Source: Bacillota bacterium (GTDB lineage: Bacteria > Bacillota > Sulfobacillia > JACIYH01). Taken from it: a stretch of 64,000 bases of DNA. The stretch's first letter is position 1, and the number at the start of each line of letters is the position of its first letter. A model generated the notes under the pieces. It made no database searches. It was not told the DNA's origin and worked only from the letters and a program-made list of their open reading frames with translations. The DNA lies in NCBI GenBank assembly GCA_030019365.1, contig JASEFA010000004.1, positions 35,262-99,261 on the forward strand. Direction: 5' to 3'. A program made the translations under genes and the position numbers. Below, piece by piece: positions 9,110 to 33,097 of this stretch.

Positions 9110-9586
9110 ATGACGCAGCCCATGGAATGGCAGCCCGGGATGGTCACGCACGAAAACGCGATCTTCGTGTGCTTCGGCGGCCTTTCGAACACGGGGTACA
9201 TCACCGCCCTGGCGGGGATGGAAGCGGTGCGGAGGGTGGGTCTCAAGAAGGCGGCCATCTTCTGCCTGGCGGGACTTCCGGTGGAAGTGAAGATGGTGCT
9301 GGCCAAGGCGAAGGCGGCGAAAAAGATCATCACGGTGGATGGCTGTGCCAACAACTGCGCGAAGAAGCTGGTCGAGGCGGCGGGCTTTCCCATCACGAGG
9401 TCAATCACCCTGGCCGTGGACCTGGGGGTGAAGAAAGTGCCGCTGCACAGGGATCTGGACGGCGAGCCCAAGGATGTGATGGAGTACATCTCCCAGGAGG
9501 ACGTGGCCAGGACGGTCGAGGCCATACTGGCAGCGATTGAAGGCGAGGAGCCTGCCGCGGCCTCCGCATCCGGGGGTGAAGCGTGA
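9110..9586 (+). CDS. DGC-domain protein (putative zinc-binding)
   Basis: ...KIITVDGCANNCAKKLVEAAG... matches the DGC motif/cysteine pattern of PF08859-like proteins. RBS is GGGGAGGAG. Confidence 0.55.
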   Translation: MTQPMEWQPGMVTHENAIFVCFGGLSNTGYITALAGMEAVRRVGLKKAAIFCLAGLPVEVKMVLAKAKAAKKIITVDGCANNCAKKLVEAAGFPITRSITLAVDLGVKKVPLHRDLDGEPKDVMEYISQEDVARTVEAILAAIEGEEPAAASASGGEA

Positions 9587-10404
9587 TGCTGGCTGGGCCT
9601 GCCGGTGAACGCGCAGAGTGCGGGGGCGTCCTGCGGGATCTGTACGGCCACGTCATGTCTTCCCTGCGGCCGAAGACCTTTCCCTTCGGGGTCAAGCTTT
9701 ACCGCAGCCTGGACGAGCGACCGCCTGGGCTTTTGTCCCCGCGGCACCCCATGAACGTGTGCCAGGTGACAGCTCTGGTCCGCTACTACGGGCGGTGCAT
9801 GTACGCCACCTGGCAGGACATGGCGTGTGTGGTCGGCGCGGTGGCCCTGGGCATGATGGAGCCGCCGGAAAACATGCGGTCGGGGAAGATCGCCGAGATG
9901 CTGCACGCGGACCTCGATTCCGCGCGCCGCTTCACGGAACTGGTTCCGCGCATTCCGGCGGGGACTGTCAAGGCTTTTGCCGCGGCGCCGCTCGACCGGT
10001 TGACGTTTGAACCCGATATGGTGGTGATGTACGCGAACACGGCCCAAGCGGTGAGGGTGGTACAGGCCTATCTTTACCGGCGGGGAGGACGGGCGGCCTT
10101 CAGCACGGGTGGCGAATACAGCCTGTGTGCGGACATCATCGCGGAGACGTACACCAAGCACGACTTCGCTCTCGCCATCCCCTGTTTCGGGGACCGCAAG
10201 ACGGCCCTGGCGCAGGACGAGGAGCTGACGGTGGCCTTCCCTGCCGACATGGCCCAGGAGATACTGGACGGCCTGGTGGGCACGGCGAAGACGGCTGCCT
10301 ACCCGACGCCCGTGGACATAGGCTTTCCCCAGATGCCCGATTACACCCTGACGGATTGGGCGGTAGCCTTCCGTCGGGGGAAGGTGGGTTCCGGGCCCGG
10401 TTAG
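9583..10404 (+). CDS. DUF169 (COG2043-like) family protein
   Basis: 273 aa with overall resemblance to DUF169/ArCR proteins (recalled, not searched). It overlaps the DGC gene by 4 nt. Confidence 0.45.
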   Translation: MMLAGPAGERAECGGVLRDLYGHVMSSLRPKTFPFGVKLYRSLDERPPGLLSPRHPMNVCQVTALVRYYGRCMYATWQDMACVVGAVALGMMEPPENMRSGKIAEMLHADLDSARRFTELVPRIPAGTVKAFAAAPLDRLTFEPDMVVMYANTAQAVRVVQAYLYRRGGRAAFSTGGEYSLCADIIAETYTKHDFALAIPCFGDRKTALAQDEELTVAFPADMAQEILDGLVGTAKTAAYPTPVDIGFPQMPDYTLTDWAVAFRRGKVGSGPG

Positions 10405-10455
10405 GGGGGAGGTTGCCGGGAGACCTCGGGGGGCAATCGGTCTTCAGTGGCGGGC

Positions 10456-10481
10456 GGGAGGCACGGCCAGTTGTGCCTCCC
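10456..10481 (+). terminator. Perfect 9-bp stem-loop GGGAGGCAC-N8-GTGCCTCCC without U-tract
   Basis: Seen directly between the DUF169 gene and the MvhD-like gene. GC-rich hairpin; no poly-T follows. Confidence 0.25.
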
Positions 10482-10529
10482 GGATCGCTATGGGGTCTGA
10501 GGTGCGCTGTGGCGGGAGGAGGCGATACC

Positions 10530-10892
10530 TTGCGGAGGCCGCGGGTCTTGCTGTGCGTGTGCCGGGGGTGTCCCGGTTTTGAGCGGGTCGATGCCTGGAC
10601 CCTGGTTAATCGCCTTCGAGACAACCCTGACGTGGAATTCGCGGTGGCGCACCCCCAGCTTTGCGGTGACGATGGGCTGCGTTTCCTGGCCGACCTGGTT
10701 CGGCCGGCCGTCACGTACCTCGTGGGAGCGTGCGATCCCGCCCTGCAGCGCAAGATGTTGAAGGAAACCTTTACCGCTGCCGGTGTGAGCTTTGACGGGC
10801 AGGTGGTGCCCCTCGACCTGCGCAACATGACGACCGAAGAAGCTGCGGAGAAAGTGGCCGAGGCGGTGAGGGCGCTCAGGGCCGGACAATAG
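10530..10892 (+). CDS. MvhD/FlpD-like Cys-rich small protein (methyl-viologen-reducing hydrogenase delta subunit family)
   Basis: Internal TTG start after GGAGGAGG gives MRRPRVLLCVCRGCPGFERVDAWTLVNRLRDNPDVEFAVAHPQLCGDDG...LVGACDP. The Cys spacing is PF02662-like. It lies inside track ORF 10125..10892. Confidence 0.4.
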   Translation: MRRPRVLLCVCRGCPGFERVDAWTLVNRLRDNPDVEFAVAHPQLCGDDGLRFLADLVRPAVTYLVGACDPALQRKMLKETFTAAGVSFDGQVVPLDLRNMTTEEAAEKVAEAVRALRAGQ

Positions 10893-21306: not shown

Positions 21307-22266
21307 ATGTCCGGCCCGTGCCGACGTGACTTTGATCCCACCTCCCTGTTCCGGAGGTACGAGGGGAACCCCATTCTGACCCGGGAAGACTGGCCCTATC
21401 CGGCAAATGCGGTCTTCAACCCGGGTGCCGTGGAGTGTGGTGGCCAGACAGTCCTCCTGGCCCGGGTCGAAGACATGAGGGGCTATTCGCACCTCACCGT
21501 TGCCAGGAGCCCGGACGGGAGGTCTGGCTGGGAGGTGTCCTCGCGGCCGGCCCTTGAGCCGGACCCCTCCTGCCTGGAGGAGCGCTGGGGCATTGAGGAC
21601 CCGCGGATAGTGTGGGTGGAGGAGCTGGGGGAGTATGCGGTGACCTGCGTGACCTTCTCCAGGGGAGGTCCCGTGGTCTCGTTGTACACCACCAGGGACT
21701 TTGTGGAGTTCAGGCGCCACGGGCCGCTTCTGCCGCCGGAGGACAAGGATGCCTCCCTCTTCCCGAGGCGGGTTGGCGGCCGGTTTGTGCTGATGCACCG
21801 GCCCATCATCAGGGGCGAAGCCCACATCTGGATGGCGTTTTCTCCCGATCTCAAGCACTGGGGGGACCACAGGATGGTGATACCCGCCAGGCCGGGTTCC
21901 TGGGACAGCTCGAGGGTGGGCCTGGGACCTCCTCCCATAGAAACGCCCCAGGGCTGGCTCGTGATGTACCACGGGGTGCGGGTGACGGCATCAGGCAGCC
22001 TTTACCGGGTAGGTCTTGCCCTGCTGGATCTGGACGAGCCCTGGAGGGTCATCCGGAGGAGCGAGGAGTGGGTATTCGGCCCCCGTTACAGGTATGAGCA
22101 CGTGGGGGACGTGCCGGGCGTGACTTTCCCGACGGGGGCGATCGTTGACCAGAGCACGGGGGAACTGAGGATATATTACGGCGCGGCCGACACGGCCATA
22201 TGTCTGGCCTTTGCTCACAAAGACGAGGTGCTCGAGTACATGAGTAGGTGTCGGTCCCCCGAGTAG
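21307..22266 (+). CDS. GH130-family glycoside phosphorylase-like protein (DUF377)
   Basis: MSGPCRRDFDPTSLFRRYEGNPILTREDWPYPANAVFNPGAV...IEDPRIVW...YYGAADTAICLA resembles the beta-propeller GH130 pattern (recalled). Confidence 0.65.
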   Translation: MSGPCRRDFDPTSLFRRYEGNPILTREDWPYPANAVFNPGAVECGGQTVLLARVEDMRGYSHLTVARSPDGRSGWEVSSRPALEPDPSCLEERWGIEDPRIVWVEELGEYAVTCVTFSRGGPVVSLYTTRDFVEFRRHGPLLPPEDKDASLFPRRVGGRFVLMHRPIIRGEAHIWMAFSPDLKHWGDHRMVIPARPGSWDSSRVGLGPPPIETPQGWLVMYHGVRVTASGSLYRVGLALLDLDEPWRVIRRSEEWVFGPRYRYEHVGDVPGVTFPTGAIVDQSTGELRIYYGAADTAICLAFAHKDEVLEYMSRCRSPE

Positions 22267-22313
22267 ACGGAGCGGTCGGGCCAGCAGGCAGGGCCGAGCG
22301 AGGAGGTGGGGCC

Positions 22314-24632
22314 ATGACCAGAGTTCCCAGGGTGGCCATCGTGTCTACCTATCCCCCGCGTCAGTGCGGTCTGGCCGTGTTCTCCCAGAACCTGTTCAAC
22401 AGCCTGAGAGCCCTGGGCGAGTTCGGGGAGGACCGCGAGGCGAACAACGCGCGCTTACAGGTAGTAGCCATGGAGCCCGGCCAGTACCACGGGGACTACC
22501 CTCCGGAGGTGCGCCTCCAGATCAGAGCGCACCGGTGGACCGACTACCGCGAGGCGGCCGAGTTCCTGAACCTGTCTTCTGTGGATGTGGTTTCCCTCCA
22601 GCATGAGTATGGCATCTTCGGGGGGGAGGACGGAAACCTTGTCCTCCACCTTCTGAAAGGCATGAAGAAGCCGGTGGTGACCACCCTTCACACGGTGCTG
22701 GAGCGCCCCACCCCGGGCCAACGCGCCACCCTGAAAGCCGTGTGCGCCCTCTCCACTGCGGTGGTGGCGCAGGCCGGGAAGGCCGTCGACATGCTGGTGG
22801 ACGTGTTCGACGTGCCCAGAGGAAAGATCGTTATGATCCCCCACGGCGCCCCGGACGTACCGTTCCTGGACCCTGCCTTCTACAAGAAGTCCAGCGGAAC
22901 CGAAGGCCGGCGCGTCTTGCTCACCTTCGGGCTGATGAGCCCCAACAAGGGGATCGAGTATGCCATAGAGGCCGTGGCCCGCCTGGTTGAGGAGTTCCCC
23001 GATCTGCTCTACGTCGTGCTGGGGGTCACCCACCCTGAGGTCAAGAAGCGCCACGGCGAGAGCTACCGCCTTTCCCTCGAGCGGCTGGTAAAAGAGAGAG
23101 GTCTCCAGGACAACGTGATGTTCCACAATCGCTTTGTATCCGAGCAACAGCTCCTGGAGTTTTTGGTGTCTGCCGACATCCACCTTACTCCCTACCTGGC
23201 CGAGGAGCAGATCGTTTCGGGCACCCTGGCCTATGCGGTGGCCTGCGGGAAAGCCGTTGTCTCCACCCCTTACTGGTACGCCCGGGAGGTCCTGGCGGAG
23301 GGCCGGGGAGTGCTGGTCCCCTTTCGGGACTCCGCCGCCATGGCGGACGGTTTAAGGGCGCTCCTCGCGGACCAGGTGCTACGGGATGGCATGCGCAGCA
23401 ATGCCTACGCCTTCGGCCGCAGGATGACCTGGCCCGTCGTGGCCCGGTCGTACATGGAGGTGTTCGTGGACGCCTTCCGAGCATACGGCCCTCAGGCGGC
23501 CGAGGCCCGCCGGTGGGCGAAGGCGACGGATCACCCTGCCCTGCCCGAAGTGAACCTGGGACATCTGAGGACCCTCACCGACGACGTGGGTCTCTTACAG
23601 CACGCCTGCCACTCGACGCCCAACCGGTTCCACGGCTACTCCACGGACGACAATGCCCGGGCTTTGCTGGTGGCCTGCATGAACTGGCAACTTGTGGCCG
23701 ATGAGAGTATCTGGCCGCTCGTTCATACGTACATGGCCTTCGTGAACCACGCGGTCGACCCTGAGACGGGCAGGGTCAGGAACTTCATGTCGTATGACCG
23801 CAGGTGGCTGGAGGAGGCAGGTTCCGACGATTGCCACGGGCGGACCCTCTGGGCCCTGGGCTACTGCGTGAACTACCTGCGCGTGGAGCCTTTGTTCAGG
23901 CTGGCACTGGGGCTCTTCAACCGCGTTCGCTCACCCGCGGCTGCCATCAGGTCACCCCGGGCCTCGGCCTACGTCGTCCTCGGTTGCGTCGAATATCTCC
24001 GGCACTTCGCTGGCGACACCGAAACCTGGACCCTGGCGGCCCACCAGGCCTCGTGGCTGGCGCAGCTCCTGAGGGAGAACTCCACCGCCGACTGGATCTG
24101 GTTCGAGGACGTGGTAACGTACGACAACGGGCGTCTTCCCCAAGCGTTGATCGCGGCGGGTTCATACCTGAGGGACGATAGCCTGCTGACGGGCGGGCTC
24201 AGGGCGCTGGACTGGCTCCTGGACCTTCAGACGGACCCGGAGGACGGCCACATCTCCCTGGTGGGGACAGACGGATGGTACCGCAGGGGGCGGCAGCGTG
24301 CCCGGTTCGACCAGCAGCCTGTCGAGATACCTGCCCTGATGGACGCCTGCTACGAAGCTCTTAGGGCCACCGGGGAGAAGCGCTGGCTGGCGGCCATGGA
24401 GAGATGCTTCTCGTGGTTTCTGGGGAGCAACGACGTCCACAGTACCCTGTGTGATCTCAGCACGGGCGGTTGCTTTGATGGCATCCACCACATGGGGGTC
24501 AATCAGAACCAGGGAGGGGAAGCTGTCGTCTCGTGGCTGATGTCCCTTCACCGCATGCACCTTGCCTGCAACGAGCAGACTGTGAAGGCCCCGGCCGGCG
24601 GGGACGATGAAGCTGCCTCTACCACTCCCTGA
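22314..24632 (+). CDS. Two-domain glycosyltransferase: N-terminal GT4-family (GT-B) domain plus ~390-aa C-terminal alpha-helical domain of unknown function
   Basis: N-terminus VAIVSTYPPRQCGLAVFSQNL...GAPDVPF...RRVLLTFGLMSPNKGIEYAIEA...EQIVSGTLAYAVACGKAVVSTPYWYAREVL is GT4-like. The C-terminal half is conserved-looking but unassigned. GGAGG lies 7 nt before ATG 22314. Confidence 0.65.
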   Translation: MTRVPRVAIVSTYPPRQCGLAVFSQNLFNSLRALGEFGEDREANNARLQVVAMEPGQYHGDYPPEVRLQIRAHRWTDYREAAEFLNLSSVDVVSLQHEYGIFGGEDGNLVLHLLKGMKKPVVTTLHTVLERPTPGQRATLKAVCALSTAVVAQAGKAVDMLVDVFDVPRGKIVMIPHGAPDVPFLDPAFYKKSSGTEGRRVLLTFGLMSPNKGIEYAIEAVARLVEEFPDLLYVVLGVTHPEVKKRHGESYRLSLERLVKERGLQDNVMFHNRFVSEQQLLEFLVSADIHLTPYLAEEQIVSGTLAYAVACGKAVVSTPYWYAREVLAEGRGVLVPFRDSAAMADGLRALLADQVLRDGMRSNAYAFGRRMTWPVVARSYMEVFVDAFRAYGPQAAEARRWAKATDHPALPEVNLGHLRTLTDDVGLLQHACHSTPNRFHGYSTDDNARALLVACMNWQLVADESIWPLVHTYMAFVNHAVDPETGRVRNFMSYDRRWLEEAGSDDCHGRTLWALGYCVNYLRVEPLFRLALGLFNRVRSPAAAIRSPRASAYVVLGCVEYLRHFAGDTETWTLAAHQASWLAQLLRENSTADWIWFEDVVTYDNGRLPQALIAAGSYLRDDSLLTGGLRALDWLLDLQTDPEDGHISLVGTDGWYRRGRQRARFDQQPVEIPALMDACYEALRATGEKRWLAAMERCFSWFLGSNDVHSTLCDLSTGGCFDGIHHMGVNQNQGGEAVVSWLMSLHRMHLACNEQTVKAPAGGDDEAASTTP

Positions 24633-24732: not shown

Positions 24733-25125
24733 GTGTCCCTGCCGGGCACGGCTTTATTGCCCGGGGAGCCGCACGCGCCGGCCTGTGACATGATCCGGGC
24801 GGGGGTGGCGGTGGCCCTGGCCACGGACTTCAACCCCGGCACCTGTCCCATCTCGTCCTTGCCTCTGGTCATGGGGCTGGCGTGTGCGGGGATGCGGATG
24901 GAGCCGGAGGAGGTTGTGGTGGCGGCGACTGTCAACGCCGCCCACGCGGCGGGTCGGGGTGAAGAGCTGGGCAGCCTGGAGGAGGGGAAGCAGGCGGACG
25001 TGGTGGTCTTTGCTGTGCCCGGCTACGGGCACGTTCCCTCCCGTATGGGAGGCGCCCCTGTCAGTCGGGTGGTGAAGCGGGGGAAGGTAGTGGTGGGGCG
25101 GGGCCGGCTGGTCGACGAGCGGTAA
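24733..25125 (+). pseudogene. 3' fragment of an amidohydrolase-family gene (imidazolonepropionase-like C-terminus)
   Basis: ...AVALATDFNPGTCPISS...GSLEEGKQADVVVFAV... is the C-terminal 130 aa of a ~400-aa metal-dependent amidohydrolase. The N-terminal ~270 aa are absent, and the glycosyltransferase gene ends 100 nt upstream. Confidence 0.5.
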
Positions 25126-25373
25126 GGTTTTGCCGGCCGAGGCCAAAGACGTAACTCGGCTTGACACGTGGACAGCCATCGCAGAACGGGGCGTTGATGG
25201 TACAATCGGTGCAAAGGTGCCGGTGCGGGAGGTCGGTGGTTCACTGGTGCCGTGAGCCCGAGGGTGGAGTCTGACCGGAGCGCCCCCTGGGAGGCACCGA
25301 CTGTGCCCGTGAGCACGCAAGGGAGAATCCAAGGGCTCCGGGGCGCTCCGCCGGCTCGAGGAGGGCGTTAGAG

Positions 25374-25600
25374 ATGGCAGTGATGTACGAACGGTGCGCG
25401 GGCCTGGATGTCCCAAGAAGATGATCACCGCATGCCTTATCGTACCTGGCCCGGCAAGCCGAACAAAGAGACGCGGACCTTGCGGACGATGACCGGGGAC
25501 ATCCTCATGCTTTCGGACTGGCTCTCCCGGGCCGGGTGCACTCACGTGGCCATGGAGAGCACGGGGGTGTACTGTTCCGCCGAAAATCGAGATCACCCGC
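25374..25600 (+). pseudogene. Frameshifted N-terminal remnant of an IS110-family transposase
   Basis: MAVMYERCAGLDV (frame a), KKMITACLIVPGP (frame b) and PNKETRTLRTMTGDILMLSDWLSRAGCTHVAMESTGVY (frame c) together match the IS110 DEDD-domain N-terminus. No intact ORF remains. Confidence 0.45.
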
Positions 25601-25692
25601 TCTTAGGCGGCAGCCTCCAGGTCCTTCAGTTCGACCTGATAGCCGAGCGATTCGAGCCGTTTCACCAGACGGCGGGAGACAGCATCGCGGTT

Positions 25693-25753
25693 TGTGTGCT
25701 GTCTCGCATTGATTTAGCCTGAAGGGGCTGGTTTGTCTCACATTGAGTTGGCC
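25693..25753 (+). repeat. Left terminal inverted repeat plus internal transposase-binding-site-like repeat of the element
   Basis: TGTCTCGCATTGA at ~25699-25711 and TGTCTCACATTGA at ~25734-25746, seen directly. Confidence 0.5.
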
Positions 25754-26498
25754 GAAGAGGAAAAACCTCTCGTTGAGGGGAATTGCCCCGCTGGGTTTCA
25801 CCGAACCCAGAAAAGGCATGGCCTCTTGCCGACACACCACCCACGCAAGAGGCCTGCCTGCACCTGGTGGAACCCAGTCTGCATTGATCATCGTAACGAA
25901 CCTGGGATCTGACGTCAACGAGTACATAAGTTGGTGGGAGCGGTACAGGGCCGGGGATGAGGAGGCCCGCCGGGCCCTGCCCAGAAAGTGCCCAAAGTGC
26001 AGGCACAGACTGCATAGCCACGGTTGGTACTGGCGCAAGATCGGCGTCCAGATCCACAGGCTACGCTGCCCCAGGTGCCGGAGAACCCACGCCGTGCTCC
26101 CGAGCTTCCTCGCTCCCCACCGGCCCTGCCTGATGGCCCTGGTCGACCGGGCATTCCGCCTCCGCCTGCAGCGATGCTCCTGGCGCCAGGTGGCCGACAA
26201 CATCACAGAGGTTTCCCTCCCCACCCTGCAGCGCTGGCTACGCCGCATCCGCGACCTCGCGGAAACCGCGGTGGCCATACTCTCCCGGGATGCCCGCCGG
26301 CTTGACCCCGAACTCGACCTGGACACCCTCCTGCGCCCCTTCACGGGGGACCAACTGAAGCTGCTTGACGCCGCCATCGCCGCCTTCTACCTCGCCTGCC
26401 AGCGCCCAAGCCCCCACCTGGCATTCCCTACCGGCCAGCCCCTCGAGTTTGCCAACGTGCACCTCATCAACGCCGAACCCATCGGCGTCTGGTTCTGA
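25743..26498 (+). CDS. Transposon-associated zinc-ribbon protein (CxxC...H...CxxC; DUF6431/TniQ-like accessory), likely start ATG ~25818
   Basis: PRKCPKCRHRLHSHGWYWRKIGVQIHRLRCPRCRRTHAVLPSFLAPH is a treble-clef-type zinc ribbon typical of transposition accessory proteins (recalled). Confidence 0.45.
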   Translation: MSWPKRKNLSLRGIAPLGFTEPRKGMASCRHTTHARGLPAPGGTQSALIIVTNLGSDVNEYISWWERYRAGDEEARRALPRKCPKCRHRLHSHGWYWRKIGVQIHRLRCPRCRRTHAVLPSFLAPHRPCLMALVDRAFRLRLQRCSWRQVADNITEVSLPTLQRWLRRIRDLAETAVAILSRDARRLDPELDLDTLLRPFTGDQLKLLDAAIAAFYLACQRPSPHLAFPTGQPLEFANVHLINAEPIGVWF

Positions 26499-26592
26499 CC
26501 ACCCCGGCAGGGGGAGCCCCGTCCCTTTCCCGCCCAGATGTTGCCGCCTGACCCAGTAAGCGGTTCGGACGGAAGACAGCGCCTGGGTCGGG

Positions 26593-28314
26593 GTGGTTCC
26601 CGTACCGGAACCAGGAAGACATTCGCCGTGCGGAAACCCCCCTTTGGGGCGCCCGTGTCCCACCAAACCTGAAGTTTTCGGCTACCGGCCCCCGGTGGTA
26701 GGCTCGGGACCGGGAGGCACCGGAGGGGTGGACGACGAGGAACGCAGGGTGGAAGTGGCCCTGTTCCGCTACGGTTGCATCGCGGAGCTCTTGCAGAGGA
26801 AGCTCCCCCGGGGCGAGCAGGCCCGCATCTTAGAGCGCCTGGCCGCCCAGGAGTGGGAGGGACCCGGCGGGGAGAAGGTGCGACTCTCCGTCTCCACGCT
26901 CAAATCCTGGCTGGCCCGCTACCGCAAGGGGGGCTTCGAGGCCTTGAAGCCCAAACCCCGGGAGGACCGGGGCAGGCCGCGGGCGCTGGACCCCGCCCTC
27001 ATCGAGCGGGCCGCAAAGCTCAAGCGGGAGCTCCCCGCCCGCTCCGTCACCCAGGTCATCCGCATGCTTGAGGCATCCGGGGTAGCCAAAGGGTCAGTCT
27101 CCCGGGCCACCCTGCACCGGCACCTGCGCGCCCTGGGCCTCACCCGCAGGCAGCCGGGGTCGCGCCGGGTCTACCAGCGCTTCGAGCGGGAGGAGCCCGG
27201 GGAACTGTGGCAGATCGACCAGGCCGACGGCATCTTCCTCCCCGACCCCAGGCGGCCGGGGAAGTTCCGCAAGACCGTGTTGTTCCTCGTCATCGACGAC
27301 CACAGCCGCTACTGCCCCCACGCCCAGTTCTACCCGGACGGCAAGATGCCGCGCCTTGAGCACTGCATGCGCCAGGCCCTGGCCAAGGCCGGCATCCCGC
27401 AGGCCATCTACGTGGACCGGGCCAGCATCCACGTCTCCCGGCACTTCCGCGCCGCCTGCGCCGCGCTGGGCATCCGGGTCATCCTGGGCCGCAGGAGGAA
27501 TCCGGCCGCGCGCGGGAAGGTCGAACGGTTCAACCAGACCGCGCAGAACGAGGTCTACCCGGAGCTGCGCCTTTTGGTGGCCCGGGAAGAGGTCAAGACG
27601 GTGGAGGAGGCCAACGCCTACTTTTGGGCGTGGCTGGAGGAGGACTACCACCGAAGGCCCCACTCGGAGACGGGCGAGCCTCCCCGGGACCGCTACTTCC
27701 GCAAGCCGCCCCGACTGCCCGACCCCGTGGCCCTGGCCAACCTCTTCCTCACGCGGGAGACGCGCACGGTGCGGAAGGACGCCACCATCCGCATCGGGGG
27801 CAACCGCTACCAGGTGGACCCCGAACTCAGAGACCGGAAAAAGGTCGAGGTGCGCTACGACCCCTTCGACCTCACCCGGGTGGAGGTGTGGGTGGACGGC
27901 CGCTTCTACCAGGTGGCGGTCCCCCTGGTCCTCAACAAAACCTCCCTTTCCCGCAGCACGGAGACCGCCCCGGCACCCACCCAGCTCAGCATGAGCTACC
28001 TCAAGCTCCTGCGCGCCCAGCACGACCGCCGCCTCGCCGAGGAAGTCGAGCGCCTGCGCTTTTCCGACTTGCCCAAAAACCCGCTTCCCGGGGGCACGGG
28101 CGGAGTGGCCCCGTTCCTTGCCCTGCTGCACCTGGGCCTGGGCCGCGACCTCACCGAGGCCGAAACCCACGAGGCCCGCGAGTTCTGGGCCACCTACGGC
28201 CCCCTGGACCTGAAGCTCTGCCGGGAGGCCCTGGAACGGGCCTGCCGCGACCTGGGCACCGGGCGGCACATCTCGAGCTACCTTGAGGAAATCAGGAAAC
28301 GGGCACGGAGGTGA
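26593..28314 (+). CDS. tniA: DDE transposase, Mu/TniA-like (rve integrase core plus Mu-transposase C-terminal-like region)
   Basis: N-terminal HTH region, then ...WQIDQADGIFLPD...LFLVIDDHSRYCP...IYVDRASIHVSRHF...GKVERFNQT has the D, D, E spacing of the retroviral-integrase fold. A C-terminal beta-rich region follows. The start may be internal (~26731). Confidence 0.8.
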   Translation: MVPVPEPGRHSPCGNPPLGRPCPTKPEVFGYRPPVVGSGPGGTGGVDDEERRVEVALFRYGCIAELLQRKLPRGEQARILERLAAQEWEGPGGEKVRLSVSTLKSWLARYRKGGFEALKPKPREDRGRPRALDPALIERAAKLKRELPARSVTQVIRMLEASGVAKGSVSRATLHRHLRALGLTRRQPGSRRVYQRFEREEPGELWQIDQADGIFLPDPRRPGKFRKTVLFLVIDDHSRYCPHAQFYPDGKMPRLEHCMRQALAKAGIPQAIYVDRASIHVSRHFRAACAALGIRVILGRRRNPAARGKVERFNQTAQNEVYPELRLLVAREEVKTVEEANAYFWAWLEEDYHRRPHSETGEPPRDRYFRKPPRLPDPVALANLFLTRETRTVRKDATIRIGGNRYQVDPELRDRKKVEVRYDPFDLTRVEVWVDGRFYQVAVPLVLNKTSLSRSTETAPAPTQLSMSYLKLLRAQHDRRLAEEVERLRFSDLPKNPLPGGTGGVAPFLALLHLGLGRDLTEAETHEAREFWATYGPLDLKLCREALERACRDLGTGRHISSYLEEIRKRARR

Positions 28315-29120
28315 GCACCGTGTACGAGAGCTTCTTCGGCTTCACCCGCACGCCATTTGGCCGGGACCTTCCCCCGGACCAGCTCTTTCCCTCCCAGGAC
28401 CACCTGGAGGCGCTCGCCCGGCTGAACTGGGCCGTCATGCAGCGTGGCATGGCCCTCCTCACCGGGGACGTGGGCTCGGGCAAGTCCACCTGCCTGCGGG
28501 CCCTGCGCGCCGCCCTGGACCCCATCAGGTCACGCTGGCTGTATCTGCCCAACCCCCTCCTTCCCGCCCGCGGGCTGTACCGCCAGCTCCTCCTGGCCCT
28601 GGGGGTAGAGCCCCGGTATCACAAGTCGGACACCGTCAACCAGCTCGCCGGGACCCTGTGGTCGGTGTTCGAGCAGGGCAAGACCCCGGTGGTGGTCATC
28701 GACGACGCCCACCTCCTCCCGGAGGCTACCCTGCAGGAACTCAGGCTGCTCACCAACTTCGACATGGACAGCGCCTGCCCCATGGCGCTCATCCTCGTCG
28801 GCCAGACCCCCCTGCGGGACAGGCTCCGGCTCTCCTGCTACGACCACATCACCCAGCGGCTCACCGTGCGGTACCACATGCGCGGGCTCACCGCCCCGGA
28901 GACCAGGGAGTACATCGCCCACCACCTAAAGGCCGCCGGGCGTACCTCGCCCCTCTTCACACCGGAGGCCATCGAGGAAATCTTCCAGTACGCCCGCGGC
29001 ATCCCCAGGCGGGTCAACCACGTGTGCGCCAATTCCCTGCTCGCCGCCTTCATCGAGCAGAAGGAGCTGGTCGACCAAAAGCTGGTACTACGGGTGATCC
29101 AGGACCTAAACGGCAACTGA
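28311..29120 (+). CDS. tniB: AAA+ ATPase transposition helper (TniB/ExeA-like, AAA_22)
   Basis: LLTGDVGSGKST (Walker A) and VVVIDDAHLL (Walker B). 4-nt overlap with the transposase. Confidence 0.75.
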   Translation: MSTVYESFFGFTRTPFGRDLPPDQLFPSQDHLEALARLNWAVMQRGMALLTGDVGSGKSTCLRALRAALDPIRSRWLYLPNPLLPARGLYRQLLLALGVEPRYHKSDTVNQLAGTLWSVFEQGKTPVVVIDDAHLLPEATLQELRLLTNFDMDSACPMALILVGQTPLRDRLRLSCYDHITQRLTVRYHMRGLTAPETREYIAHHLKAAGRTSPLFTPEAIEEIFQYARGIPRRVNHVCANSLLAAFIEQKELVDQKLVLRVIQDLNGN

Positions 29121-29162
29121 ACTCGGATCGGCAGCTGCCCTTCCCCTGGGGCAGCCTTCTTC

Positions 29163-30368
29163 GTGGCCCGAAAAAGTTATCTCAATCCGAGACAAGCCGG
29201 TCAAAACAATGTGAGACGGCACACCATGACCAGGGGGCCCGCTCTTACAGGAAAGAGCCTTCTGTCTGGCCTTTTGCGGTGCGCAAGGTGTGGCCGTAAG
29301 CTGCACGTCACCTATACGGGGGCCAATGGCAACGTGGTCCGCTATGCGTGCAACAGCGCATCAGTGAACCACGGTGCGGAACGGTGCATCTCCTTCGGGG
29401 GGCTAGCGGTTGACCGGGCCGTTGAACGTGAGTTACTGAAGGTGGTTGAACCTGCGGCGGTCCAGGCAGCCCTGGATGCGCTGGCCGAGCTCGAGGCCTC
29501 ACGCGACGAAAGGCGCGCTGCCCTGGAACTTGCCTTGCGGCAGCCCCGGTATGAGGCGGACCGGGCACGGCGGCAGTACGATGCGGTGGAGCCGGAGAAC
29601 CGCTTGGTGGCCTCAGAGCTTGAGCGACGCTGGAATGCGGCTCTTGAGGAAGTGAGGCGGCTCGAGGAAGAACTCTGCCGTCTGCTCCCATCGGATGCGA
29701 ACCTGAGTGAGGACGAGCGAGAGGAACTTCTTTCCCTCTCCGAGGACCTGCAGAGCGTTTGGAACAATCCTCTTACAGACATGCGTACGAAGAAGCGCCT
29801 GGTGCGGACGGTGATCGAGGAGATCATCGCTGACGTGGACGAGGAGAGGGCTGTGGTAGAGTTGGTGATCCGCTGGGCGGGCGGGTACCATACCCGGCTC
29901 CTCGTAAAGAAGAACCGCACCGGCGAGCACCGCTTCCGGACGGACCGGAAAGCGGTCGAGGTGGTGCGCGAGTTGGCCAAGGTGACCCGTGACCGGGACA
30001 TCGCGGCCATCCTGAACCGGCTGGGGATAAAAACGGGCAAGGGTAACACCTGGACCGAGGCCAGGGTGAGATCTCTCCGGAACGAGCACGGGATACCGGT
30101 GTTTACAGACGACGGAGAAAACCCAAAGTGGCTCACGATGAAGGATGCTGCCTCCCTCCTGGGGGTCAGCCCGACGTCAGTGCATCGGCTCATTCTGGAG
30201 GGAGTACTCCCCGCCAGGCAGGTAGTACCTTGCGCGCCCTGGATGATCGAAAAACACTCGTTGGAATCGGAAGCGGTTAGGCAGGCGGTGGCAGGCATCA
30301 AACAGGGCGGGAAACGTCCGCTACCACACCACCCCGATCAGCAAAAGCTAGATTTGAAGCCGATGTAG
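29163..30368 (+). pseudogene. C-terminal fragment of a large serine recombinase (zinc-ribbon and coiled-coil regions only; catalytic resolvase domain missing)
   Basis: LLRCARCGRKLHVTYTGANGNVVRYACNSA...GAERC is the recombinase zinc beta-ribbon, followed by a long coiled-coil and C-terminal region. The first ~20 codons of the ORF are read from the transposon right end. The recombinase-derived sequence begins at about 29226. Confidence 0.55.
29177..29226 (-). repeat. Right terminal inverted repeat plus internal repeat of the element
   Basis: The reverse complement contains GTCTCACATTG and GTCTCGGATTGAG. It pairs with the left end. Confidence 0.5.
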
Positions 30369-30380
30369 CGAGGTGGTGCA

Positions 30381-30776
30381 TCATGTCGTGGGATCGGTTG
30401 GGCCCACGATTATGACCCCCTGGTGAGCCCGGATCCAATTGCCCGTGGCCAGGCTCCGCATGACCGCGCGGTCAAGGCCGCGGGGCACCTGGTAGTCGAT
30501 GTCCTCCATGCACGCGGGCAGCCTCAGCTTGGCCGCCTTCAGCAACCTGGCCAGGCGCCGGTCCTGCCTGGAACTCCATTCGCGATCCACCAGCAGGCCG
30601 AAGCGCTCCTCGAAGGAAAGACCCTGCACGTCGGGTTCCTGTGCCTGGGCCAGGAAGGCCTCCGCCATCCCGTCAAGCCGCATCTCCCGCAGCCTGGCAA
30701 CCGTCTGCTGGTCAAGCATGCGATGACCCCTCCCCGCTGTAGTACGAGGGGCCCCGCAGGTTGGGGTGCTCCCCAA
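30381..30776 (-). pseudogene. istB: IS21-family IstB helper ATPase, N-terminal fragment truncated at the Walker A region
   Basis: [25 protein letters not shown]...LSFEERFGLLVDREWSSRQDRRLARLLKAAKL...LATGNWIRAHQGVIIVGPT then stop. The break coincides with the serine-recombinase fragment end. Confidence 0.6.
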
Positions 30777-31569
30777 CCGCCCGAGCCTCCGGCGGGGACT
30801 CGAGCGGTAACCTGTCCAGCTTGTTCTCCAGGATCGACTTCACACTCCGGTAAGAGATGGCGCCGGTGGCCAGGGCCCTTCTTGAGGCGGCCTCCAGCCG
30901 CTCCTCGCCGTAGCGCTTGCCCAACCGCATGATCCCCAGGCAGGACCGGTAGCCCTGCTCGGGGTGGGGCTTGGACTCCATGATCCTCCGCACCAGCCGC
31001 CCCGTGTTCTCGCCCGCCTTCTCAGCCCATCGGACAAGGCGATCCGGGGTCCACTCGAGATGCTCCCGGTGGGAATGCGGGCGGTGCTCGGGATCGGTCA
31101 CGAACTGCCCCTTGCGGTAGCTGCGCGGGTGGCTGGCCACGCGGCGCCCCTTGTGCAGGACCTCCACCGTGGTGGCCGTGTAGCGCACCTCCACCTGCTC
31201 CCTGATGAGCCCGTGAGGGACGCTGTAGTAATTGCCTTCCACCTCCACGTGGTAGTCGATGTTCACCCGGGCCTTCTTCCACTGGGCGAACTCGTACCTC
31301 TGCGGCGGCAGGGGTTTGAGGGCCGCCTTCTCCACCGTCTCGTACAGGGTGCGGCGGCTCCCCTCCATCTTCTGAAACGGCGCGTCGTTGAGCTTTTCGA
31401 GCAGTTCCCTGATCGCCTGGTTCACCTCCGCCAGGCTGAAGAAGGTGCGGTGGCGCAGGGCGGCCAGGATCCACCGCTCCACCACCTGCACCCCCGCCTC
31501 CACCTTGGCCCGGTCGCGGGGGTGCTTGGGCCGGGCGGGGATCACCACAGCCCCGTAGTGCTCCGCCAT
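30712..31569 (-). pseudogene. istA: IS21-family IstA transposase, C-terminal part only (N-terminal HTH and first catalytic residues missing)
   Basis: Begins within the catalytic core (...[22 protein letters not shown]...) and continues through the conserved IstA C-terminal region. The stop overlaps the istB start, as in IS21. Confidence 0.6.
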
Positions 31570-32633
31570 CTCAGCTTATCCCGACGTCAAGATAACAGGA
31601 GTTCGTCGAGTACTTTGGGTCGGACGTGGTGGTTGTGCCGCCGGGGGTGGTCGCCGAGACACTGGGGTCTTTCTTGGAGTGGTGGAACCTGCGGCTGCTC
31701 GAAGGGATGTCCGCTGAGGAGCGGCGGCGGGCCCTGGCGCAGGGGACTCGGCCCCGCACGAGGGTCCCGGAGGGATTGCTGGACTGCGAGACGGTGGGGA
31801 TCGTGATGGATCCTGAGGAGGGATTGAACTTTTACGCCGAGTTGGCAGGTTCCTTGAGGTATTCGCCAAGCCGGAATCGTTCAGCGCCCAAGAGCGGCGC
31901 GACGTGGTGATGCGGTACCTCTGGAGCAACAGCATCTCGCCGCTGCCCTTCCGCAAGGTGGTGGAGAGGTATCCGGAGAATGCCCGGCTGGTGTTCGGTG
32001 AGATTTTCGGGAAGGACGCCTGGGACAACGAAAAGGACCTGGCTTCCCTGATGCGCAAGTACAAGGGGGTCTTTCTGAAGCGGAAGCCGCTGCCCGGCTT
32101 CATTCCGGTTGCCGCTGATGCCGTCGGCGGTGTAGCGGCCAAGCGGGTTCCGCCGTCCAGGCCTCGTCGGCGGGCAGGACCGCGGAGATGAAGAGCCGCG
32201 GAGACAGTGTGGGACTACCCGGAGGCACGGAGGTCAGGGGCGTGAACCCGGTCCTGCGCGTCCTCATAGAGGTGGTGGCGGAGGCCCAGATTAGGCGGCG
32301 CGATCCGCCCGAGGCGGAGGAGATCCTGGTTTCGCTGCTGGGCCCCGGTGGGGGTGCGAATGCGGAGACGAGGCAGGTGGCAGGGAAACTGTTGGCCGAG
32401 ATCCGAAGCGGTACCACCGGCTAGTAATGTGATGACCCCGGGTGGGAGGGGTAAGCAGGGGAGGACCCCGAACTCTGGTGTGCCCGGGGTGGTGCCCTGT
32501 CTCCCGGGGGGAAGCTCCTGCGAAGAACCGCACTGTGCCAGGTAGGAGGCCATGGCAGCTCTCGGGCCGGCAGGTACTTGTTTGATGGGGCTCTCTTGAG
32601 CGCAGAAACCGGTGTGATACACTACGAGGTGAG

Positions 32634-32873
32634 GTGAGCCTTTTGAAGGCGAGGTTCAAGGTTCTGCTGGAATGGAACGAGGAAGGCGGAGGTTACACGG
32701 TAACGGTGCCAGCGTTGCCGGGGTGCTTGTCCGAGGGGGATACGGTTGAGGAAGCCCTTGGCAATATCCGGGAGGCGATTGAGGGGTATCTTGAAGCACT
32801 CAGGAAGCAGGGCAGAGCGGTACCTTCAGAAGACGTACGTCTCCTGATAGGCGAGGTGGAGGTTGCGGTATGA
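32634..32873 (+). CDS. hicB: HicB-family antitoxin (type II TA)
   Basis: WNEEGGGYTVTVPALPGCLSEGDTVEEALGNIREAIEGYLE has the HicB/UPF0150 fold signature. 4-nt overlap with hicA. Confidence 0.7.
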   Translation: MSLLKARFKVLLEWNEEGGGYTVTVPALPGCLSEGDTVEEALGNIREAIEGYLEALRKQGRAVPSEDVRLLIGEVEVAV

Positions 32874-33097
32874 CGAGGCTGCCCCGCGTCTCCGGCAAGG
32901 ACGTGGTGCGAGCGTTACAGCGGGGCGGGTTCAGACTGGTGCACGTTCGTGGCAGTCACCACTACCTTGAGCCTCCAGGCGGAGGTTTGCTGGTTACTGT
33001 GCCAGTCCACGGTAGTCGGGTGCTGAAGCCCAAGACCATGAAGAGCATTTTGGATCAAGCCGGGCTGACGGCAGACGAACTGGCGAGGCTGCTTTGA
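32870..33097 (+). CDS. hicA: HicA-family mRNA interferase toxin
   Basis: KDVVRALQRGGFRLVHVRGSHHYLEPPGGGLLVTVPVHGSRVLKPKTMKSILDQAGL has the YcfA/HicA motif with conserved His. Confidence 0.7.
   Translation: MTRLPRVSGKDVVRALQRGGFRLVHVRGSHHYLEPPGGGLLVTVPVHGSRVLKPKTMKSILDQAGLTADELARLL

Follow-up and report, generated by a model that had tools for sequence, protein, structure and literature searches.

A probable relic of a serine-integrase element in the Walker A codons of istB, within a nested stack of mobile elements from a Bacillota bacterium

The large serine integrases of PhiC31 and Bxb1, the Listeria A118/LI integrase and SprA of SPbeta (4KIS, 9RAD) share resolvase, recombinase, zinc-ribbon and coiled-coil domains. 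The integrative elements and prophages that use such enzymes integrate by conservative recombination of a short attP site with a short attB site, insert into genes without target duplication, and carry the integrase gene beside one att site. The same domains and the same behaviour are found in a family of small elements, one of which appears to have left a relic in the stretch of DNA described here, a 64,000-nt piece from a Bacillota bacterium (lineage Sulfobacillia; JACIYH01; assembly GCA_030019365.1, contig JASEFA010000004.1, positions 35,262-99,261 of the forward strand), hereafter the window. Positions 24733-31569 of the window contain a pile of gene remnants. We consider, with a probability of about 0.78, that this pile is a nested stack of mobile elements in which a serine-integrase element made of a DUF5372 gene and a recombinase gene inserted site-specifically into the Walker A codons of istB, and that the attR relic of this insertion lies at 30369-30401.

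Unlike the serine-integrase prophages, the elements in question are about 2.6 kb long, with two genes and no cargo, and their target consists of catalytic-motif codons in a gene of another mobile element. In these elements, attP falls within the 5' codons of the first gene. The recombinase also differs from known serine integrases by an extra C-terminal region of about 130 residues with an Xis-like helix-turn-helix (HTH).

Tn4451 and Tn4453 are small elements which a large serine recombinase, TnpX, moves via a circular intermediate. In Tn4451, and in the circles of IS911, IS30 and tandem IS21, the joining of the ends creates an expression signal, a junction promoter. In the elements described here the joint gives instead the start of an upstream, presumably translationally coupled gene, with its ribosome-binding site, its ATG and four of its codons. 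Unlike Tn4451 and Tn4453, these elements are highly target-specific and carry no resistance genes.

IS607 elements are also minimal mobile elements that use a serine recombinase rather than a DDE enzyme. The IS607 enzymes are small, have their DNA-binding domain N-terminal of the catalytic domain and show minimal target specificity (PMC4058570), whereas the relatives of the window recombinase have about 690 residues, an N-terminal catalytic domain and strict clade-specific targets, which places them outside the IS607 group.

In the TIGER survey, Mageeney et al. (2020, Nucleic Acids Research, PMC7192596) put forward islands that disrupt Pfam IstB_IS21 as possible cases of regulated gene integrity, in a single sentence of their Discussion. 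About ten rows of their supplementary table correspond to such islands (e.g., Nmu1.4.Tnp_21.1 and Mva2.4.Tnp_21_2), and the small ones map in IstB_IS21 at about profile position 56-57 of 178. Judged from the table entries, these islands very probably belong to the same family as the window relic. Small islands in istB have therefore been catalogued already; the paper does not say which type of recombinase is involved, what the ends look like or that Walker A is the target, and it describes neither the DUF5372 gene nor the sister clades. We found the anatomy of the element and these last three features described nowhere else. It is the only paper that connects serine recombinases with an istB target in the literature searched (subscription-only papers being outside the search). 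Durrant et al. (2022, PMC10083194) mention neither IstB nor IS21 in the text and supplements searched. No paper that mentions DUF5372 was found within the same limits, and DUF6431 is mentioned in passing only.

The part of the window that bears on the integration contains the following features:

29224-30368, plus strand: large serine recombinase gene of which the 3' 381 codons remain (PF13408, PF12728; alignment to full-length homologs)
30369-30401, plus strand: probable right end (attR) of the recombinase element, which fits the end conserved in 40 loci (nhmmer, alignment, consensus)
30396-30719, minus strand: N-terminal half of IS21 IstB (PF01695 positions 2-101 of 238; NF038214 positions 1-99 of 232)
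30712-31569, minus strand: C-terminal 285 codons of IS21 IstA (NF033546 positions 208-294 of 294; Mu-transpos_C_2)

On the minus strand, istA is followed by istB as in an IS21 operon; the two genes overlap at 30712-30719 and are both truncated, and both ends of this IS21 copy are deleted or displaced. The window IstB ends in the first residues of Walker A, reading VGPT/DPTT and a stop, where the slash marks the end of homology. The match of the hidden Markov model (HMM) covers 30399-30692, and no C-terminal half of IstB was found anywhere in the window. The homology to IstB ends at 30396 and the recombinase stop codon occupies 30366-30368; the 27 bp in between belong to the recombinase element. 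The sequence at 30365-30395, TAGCGAGGTGGTGCATCATGTCGTGGGATC, fits the consensus of the right end, with a match at 30369-30395, and is followed by GGTTGGGCC, the antisense of G-P-T. The overlap zone, GGTTGG (6 bp, 30396-30401), is common to the end of the element and to istB.

The same arrangement recurs elsewhere. Homologs that are 48-54% identical to the window recombinase, on contigs of 6 Mb and 1.4 Mb, have behind them, encoded on the opposite strand, an IstB truncated to 114 and 137 aa and IstA. We compared 83 loci: 80 from a metagenome scan (out of at least 586 matches), two from large contigs, and the window; named plasmids were examined apart. In at least 36 of the 83, two IstB halves that are split at the same Walker A residue flank the recombinase (tblastn, HMMs, classification), always on the opposite strand. 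The IstB N-terminal half ends with LGPP/DPAS and a stop in locus L007, and continues from LGPP into DPVT in locus L006, where the missing C-terminal half, starting from PPGVGKT, is located on the far side of the recombinase gene. The right end, in which TAGCGAGGTGGGCATTATGTCGCTGGATC is followed by the boundary and GGGCGG, is detectable in 40 loci, and the left end, in which GGGCGG precedes the boundary and AACAGTCACATACTGCAC, in 37; both were detected in 28 loci, which gives a length of 2552-2688 bp for the element. The ends are imperfect inverted repeats (ACATAATGCCC) located 8-9 bp from the crossover, and these arms are putative binding arms of the recombinase, as would be expected of a serine-integrase attP.

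The target is strongly conserved coding DNA, G-P-P/T-G-x-G-K-T/S. In 20 of the 28 loci, an open G-x-x-G-x-G-K-T/S frame reappears once the element and the 6-bp overlap are taken out. Locus L006 also contains an uninterrupted istB paralog which is 93-97% identical to the interrupted copy. There, CGGGCGG (7 bp) is common to attB, attL and attR, and no bases have been gained or lost. Compared with the intact gene, the interrupted one thus reveals an insertion that was conservative and has a 7-bp overlap. The short shared core, the lack of target duplication and the fixed orientation are those of an attP x attB recombination, of which the window retains attR alone. Neither tRNA genes nor Rfam families that could have served as integration targets were found within the 64-kb window. 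In L006, a complete IS110-family element (9480-10733) sits inside the serine-integrase element near its right end, between the region of the recombinase stop and the IstB N-terminal half, and adds a further level of nesting.

The IstB N-terminal halves beside the element have a median identity of only 27% to each other, and the elements of L022 and L023, which are 98.4% identical over 2685 bp, have unrelated 300-bp flanks. The insertions thus appear, from these comparisons, to be independent and recent events of a mobile element rather than one inherited block. The recombinase family also occurs on 323 PLSDB plasmids (591 places), mostly from rhizobia and their relatives, with multiple copies per plasmid. 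Plasmid unnamed7 of Azospirillum oryzae KACC 14407 (NZ_CP054622.1) has attL, attR, both IstB halves and istA around an intact recombinase gene (at about 101,100-103,700) annotated "recombinase family protein", and plasmid 2 of Nitrobacter hamburgensis X14 has attR and the IstB N-terminal half.

Within the conserved right end are a Shine-Dalgarno sequence, GAGGTG, and, 13 nt ahead of the boundary, an ATG. It holds the ribosome-binding site, the ATG and the first four codons of a DUF5372 gene, the rest of which is at the left end. In the window, GAGGTGG (30370-30376), the ATG (30383-30385) and the start MSWD are all that survives of this split gene. When attP is rebuilt from the right end, the overlap and the left end, an open reading frame (ORF) of 129-173 aa spans the joint in all 28 elements. 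Its N-terminal domain (M-S-x-D-R...Y-Y-x-W-H-P-L-x-G-Q...L-P-D-G-T...W-M) matches DUF5372, with E values down to 1e-8. In 24 of the 28 elements, the DUF5372 stop and a start codon in the recombinase frame form a 4-nt overlap (ATGA, GTGA or TTGA); in some of these, the annotated recombinase Met lies a few codons downstream of the overlapping start.

Since the start signals and the body of the gene are at opposite ends, the DUF5372-recombinase operon would be complete only in the excised circle, the predicted attP joint of which is of the type ...GCATTATGTCGCTGGATCGGGCGGAACAGTCACATACTGC.... Such an operon should raise the synthesis of the recombinase exactly when re-integration is needed. We infer this circle-dependent, translationally coupled expression, and a role of the DUF5372 protein, from the arrangement of the reading frames and by analogy with the circles mentioned above. 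A scan for promoters and terminators gave no signal exceeding chance. On plasmid 2 of N. hamburgensis X14 (locus L090, 1894-2580), the place of the DUF5372 gene upstream of the recombinase is taken by a gene for 228 aa that bears the annotation "LuxR family transcriptional regulator" and extends over the start of the recombinase gene; the attL motif was not detected in this locus, and the upstream gene may be different or fused.

The same metagenome scan revealed sister clades that have the same type of right end next to other flanks. In L042, L016, L054 and L082, the target is a tyrosine recombinase gene, cut at about position 133-137 of 172 of the Phage_integrase profile, in the H-x-L-R-H region. 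In L062, L065 and L079, it is a transposase of the DUF772 type (IS5-like), cut after RVDTTV. DruA/DUF4338-like genes are targeted in L020, L078, L046, L050 and L053 as well as in L045, L070, L074 and L059, at two sites: after N-x-R-F-L-I-L-P (profile position about 142 of 297) or after Y-H-Y-L-G-Y-x-Q-P-V. The class of target tracks the clade in a neighbour-joining tree of the C-terminal parts of the recombinases, in which the window copy groups with the IstB-targeting L006, L071 and L018. From about position 3267 of L084, the element ends against WDCKYHVVFVPN (antisense reading SHSRWDCKYHVVFVPN), which may represent a further class of target; the antisense reading presumably resembles the N-terminal motif of IS200/IS605 Y1 transposases.

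The window recombinase retains the zinc ribbon, the coiled coil, the extra domain and the C-terminal Xis-like HTH. The zinc ribbon with its embedded coiled coil is detected by PF13408 (E 4e-9), with predicted strands at 17-58 and long helices at 76-152. An AlphaFold (AF2) model built from 34 homologs (pLDDT 86) combines a zinc ribbon and a long coiled coil with a small beta domain and HTH units at the C-terminus. Its top Foldseek matches are complexes of serine integrases with att DNA (9y66_A, PhiC31 integrase and LI integrase, 4kis_C); those of the C-terminal HTH are Pukovnik Xis, RacA and BldC. By sequence, neither the fragment nor a profile had any match in the PDB. About 318 N-terminal residues are missing by comparison with the 617-aa P0005, the full-length relatives having 687-709 aa. 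The sequence begins at the conserved M-TRG, directly before the zinc ribbon, at 29224, and the N-terminal part was found nowhere in the window. The resolvase catalytic domain (PF00239, with VYVRQS) and the recombinase domain (PF07508), present in the full-length relatives, are absent. The window copy is a dead relic.

The possibility that this breakpoint is a recurrent one was considered and rejected: about 16 of 120 database homologs start with MKGLM.RGA or MTRGA, and most of these are probably effects of gene calling. The short recombinase call of L006 starts at the first ATG past a frameshift. In L007 (position 7977), an unrelated truncation beside an IS1595-type fragment falls within about seven codons of the window break at 29224 (n = 2), which may be a coincidence or mean that the stretch immediately upstream of the zinc ribbon is fragile or is targeted.

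The rest of the pile and its neighbours are as follows:

22248-24632, plus strand: intact glycosyltransferase gene (ORF listing, profile searches)
24733-25125, plus strand: hutI (imidazolonepropionase) reduced to its 3' third (TIGR01224 positions 261-377 of 377, E 2.7e-34; C-terminal part of Amidohydro_1)
25383-25575, plus strand: N-terminus (about 65 codons) of an IS110-type transposase, in three frames with two frameshifts
25606-25694, minus strand: C-terminal tail (about 30 codons and a stop) of a second IS110-family transposase, NRDAVSRRLVKRLESLGYQVELKDLEAAA, cut by the transposon left end
25695-29223, plus strand: apparently intact transposon (DUF6431, DDE transposase, AAA ATPase)
31596-32107, plus strand: hypothetical-protein pseudogene without its 5' half (residues 203-373 of a family of about 400 aa; tblastn)
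32634-33097, plus strand: intact hicB-hicA pair, a neighbour outside the pile (PF15919, PF07927)

The original prediction for this region, made from the sequence alone, was of five remnants in less than 7 kb, and the ORF listing and profile searches recovered all five. The amidohydrolase said to lack its 5' two-thirds is hutI, in which only the end of TIGR01224 is kept. The IS110-like N-terminus is indeed spread over three frames, the recombinase has lost its catalytic domain and resumes exactly at the right end of the transposon (homology from 29224, transposon end at 29223), IstB is cut in Walker A, and the match of IstA begins at position 208 of 294. Alignment to full-length homologs placed the breakpoints where they had been predicted. 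Sequencing errors do not explain the truncations at the central junctions: the Logan assembly of SRR23186780, which is independent, is 100% identical over 25539-30468 and crosses both transposon junctions and the recombinase/IstB junction. These junctions are therefore not errors of sequencing or assembly. The minus-strand IS110 tail and the truncated gene at 31596-32107 had not been predicted.

The first 260 or so codons of hutI are gone, and the fragment scores 118.6 bits with TIGR01224, below the cut-off of 298 for a full-length match. The repaired IS110 N-terminal peptide has a weak direct Pfam score (E 0.09); its homologs, at most 74% identical, almost all contain the DEDD N-terminal domain of IS110 (PF01548), and tblastn aligns it with an IS110 transposase that is complete in L006 (E 4e-8). 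The minus-strand tail (RRLVKRLESLGYQVELKDLEAAA, followed by a stop) matches the C-termini of the IS110-type proteins P0199, P0166 and P0187 and, with about 30 residues, is too short for the Pfam model Transposase_20. These three proteins are themselves short (93-153 aa), with about 65 N-terminal residues joined directly to the C-terminal tail, and are internally deleted derivatives, in several independent cases. The left end of IS110-family elements encodes a guide (bridge) RNA. The 257 bp from the hutI stop to the IS110 start codon (25126-25382) may be such a left end, and had no Rfam match.

The hypothetical-protein pseudogene is 87% identical to P0241, with one frameshift near 31841-31847 and no Pfam match, and stands head-to-head with the truncated istA. 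Its relative P0244 sits in an unrelated context. An open stretch on the plus strand at 32119-32421 shows 55% identity, over a quarter of the query, to P0253 (TPR, DUF1841 and SEC-C motif domains) and may be a further gene fragment ahead of hicB.

The transposon encodes a DUF6431 zinc-ribbon protein (25743-26498), a DDE transposase (26728-28314) and an AAA ATPase (28311-29120). Its termini are TGTGCTGTC...GACGGCACA, and two TGTCTCRCATTGA-like repeats are found inside each end (25700 and 25734; 29182 and 29206). Both ends, 25695 and 29223, are fixed by four copies (L001-L004, from a Fermentithermobacillaceae metagenome-assembled genome (MAG) and another Bacillota MAG) that are 82-92% identical and have other flanks. 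The transposase has an rve core (PF00665, E 5e-11) and a Mu-transposase C-terminal domain (PF09299, E 1e-14), and the ATPase matches AAA_22 (E 4e-23) and TniB (E 4e-5), as expected of an AAA+ helper. The transposon thus resembles IS21 IstAB, Tn552, TniAB of Tn5053/Tn402 and Mu AB, which share this combination; its TG...CA termini with repeated, putative internal binding sites are a further likeness. Unlike the TniAB-type elements, it carries a DUF6431 gene rather than TniQ or a resolvase, and the one intact insertion found has a 7-bp duplication. All NCBIfam models of insertion-sequence families scored below their cut-offs (IS481, 199.9 vs. 224; ISNCY_2, 117.8 vs. 250). More distant gene pairs of this kind, annotated merely as "DDE-type integrase" and "AAA family ATPase", occur on plasmids of Thermobacillus, Streptomyces and Mycobacterium. 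Since all three ORFs are open, the window transposon may still be active.

The intact insertion is that of L002, where the target duplication CCTTGAG lies inside another DUF6431/DDE/AAA transposon. The idea that the transposon targets serine-recombinase genes was rejected, because the four related copies have other flanks, that of L002 being within a similar transposon. In L002 (3300-4900 and 12058-15077), which comes from the Fermentithermobacillaceae MAG, the transposon is located between a CRISPR-like array (repeated translations FSPLYIGVLAAT/SVPSTSGFSLQ) and further genes, which may be those of a type III CRISPR system (Cas10-like).

In the window, the flanks of the transposon are CGGTTTG on the left, in IS110 sequence, and CCATGAC on the right, in the recombinase. 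They do not match and there is no 7-bp duplication, which suggests that the left side was rearranged after the insertion and that the right junction is the original one, in the recombinase gene. The exact transposase is present on one contig only, which spans both transposon ends. A second identical copy not being evident, a transposon-adjacent deletion seems preferable to recombination between two copies.

These observations suggest the following history of elements entering other elements, in which the order and the mechanism of the deletions are what we infer for the window. An IS21-family element, with istA-istB on the minus strand, would have been there first. An element of 2.55-2.69 kb, comprising only the DUF5372 gene and the gene of a recombinase of about 690 aa, would then have entered the Walker A codons of istB, antisense to it, by conservative, site-specific attP x attB recombination. 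The DUF6431/DDE/AAA transposon would have inserted into the recombinase gene at about codon 318. In a later rearrangement beside the transposon, the recombinase gene would have lost its 5' half, and the DUF5372 gene, attL and istB's C-terminal half would have disappeared, so that the left end of the transposon now meets the IS110 tail, which itself abuts the frameshifted fragment of the other IS110 element downstream of hutI. istA and the hypothetical gene next to it would have lost their 5' parts in a separate event; one deletion can account for both head-to-head truncations, at 31569 (istA) and 31596 (hypothetical gene).

The case for an integrated element is read from sequence comparison: the loci compared show the anatomy of the element, its recurrence, how precisely and in which orientation it inserts, its movement between unrelated flanks and the reading frame across its joined ends. 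Several points weigh against it. IstB flanks could not be detected in about half of the 83 loci; many of the latter are from sister clades with targets of their own, and 26 are classed as "other". The overlap differs between attL and attR in some loci (e.g., L022 and L051), and the crossover is placed within the overlap rather than at an exact dinucleotide. The 28 in-frame ORFs in 28 elements are strong evidence without being proof, since they partly reflect an inherited geometry and are not 28 independent trials. No excised circle, attP junction, tandem copy or empty-site read was found among the loci examined. In the window, the left junction is gone, integration is deduced from attR alone, and the order proposed for the deletions is tentative.

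The alternative that survives best, although we consider it unlikely, is that of a domesticated switch, in which integration silences IS21 and excision restores istB. Mageeney et al. (PMC7192596) list such islands as candidates for this "regulated gene integrity" and, the insertion being conservative, excision would restore istB exactly. Against it, the sister clades are found in tyrosine recombinase, IS5-like transposase and DruA-like genes, there are multiple copies per plasmid, the element has moved between unrelated IS21 copies, and many copies are decayed (L006 is frameshifted, L007 and the window copy are truncated). A selfish element therefore fits better than a switch maintained by the host.

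The original prediction saw in the pile sequential insertions and deletions at an insertion hotspot flanked by hicBA. As a rival reading, this amounts to an unspecific graveyard, in which unrelated elements gathered and random deletions happened to join the 3' end of a recombinase to an IstB truncated at Walker A. Sequential insertions and deletions are borne out, and several truncations do resemble plain deletions: hutI has lost its 5' end, istA and the hypothetical gene are truncated head-to-head, and the transposon flanks do not match. The abutments, however, are not all accidents of one kind. The transposon/recombinase abutment is a true transposon end. That of the recombinase and IstB is a probable site-specific integration junction (attR): it comes back at these codons and in this orientation, with an element end of 30 bp that is conserved, next to IstB sequences about 27% identical to one another, in dozens of contigs and plasmids that are unrelated, named plasmids among them. 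The hicBA pair is intact, lies on the right side only, 500 bp past another pseudogene, and nothing links it to the events; it is a bystander and does not flank a hotspot. The unspecific graveyard is contradicted for the recombinase/IstB junction and, as an account of the whole pile, slightly less probable than the switch.

An ancient fusion would also produce homologous elements of constant orientation: a block of recombinase and half-IstB that arose once would have spread by descent, without any target specificity. We regard this as very improbable, because the element has an IstB half on either side and the two, when rejoined, give an open P-loop frame, an intact istB paralog nearly identical to the interrupted copy is found on the same contig in L006, elements that are 98% identical have unrelated flanks, and the IstB flanks are more diverged than a dead pseudogene could be if it had been carried along and were still recognisable. 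Finally, chimeric joining or binning of repeats, conceivable for a MAG contig from a region with many repeat families, can practically be set aside, as the Logan assembly is identical across the three key junctions and the junction sequence fits a motif conserved across many other assemblies.

Beyond the window, we incline, by a small margin of confidence, to the view that the relic belongs to a barely characterised, "hyperparasitic" family of serine-integrase elements of about 2.6 kb and two genes, whose clades home to the motif codons of mobile or defence-type genes, and whose operon is put together only in the circle.

The region is functionally unimportant for this genome; it consists of dead copies and one possibly live transposon and, taken alone, is ordinary decay. 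What makes it of interest is the attR relic, a pointer to widespread minimal serine-integrase elements that home to the motif codons of other mobile elements. With such a target, a site would be available wherever elements of the IS21 type exist or, for the sister clades, wherever integrases and transposases do, and the insertion would turn the host element off. If this is confirmed, a truncated IstB next to a recombinase could be annotated as one event rather than as decay, and this parasitism of one element on another would represent an added layer of control on IS21 activity. The assembly of the first gene only in the circle would be a neat regulatory design. If these elements behave as proposed, they would inactivate their host elements and would provide a natural library of compact integrases for tool building, with clade-specific targets and known attP/attB pairs that can be read from the sequence.

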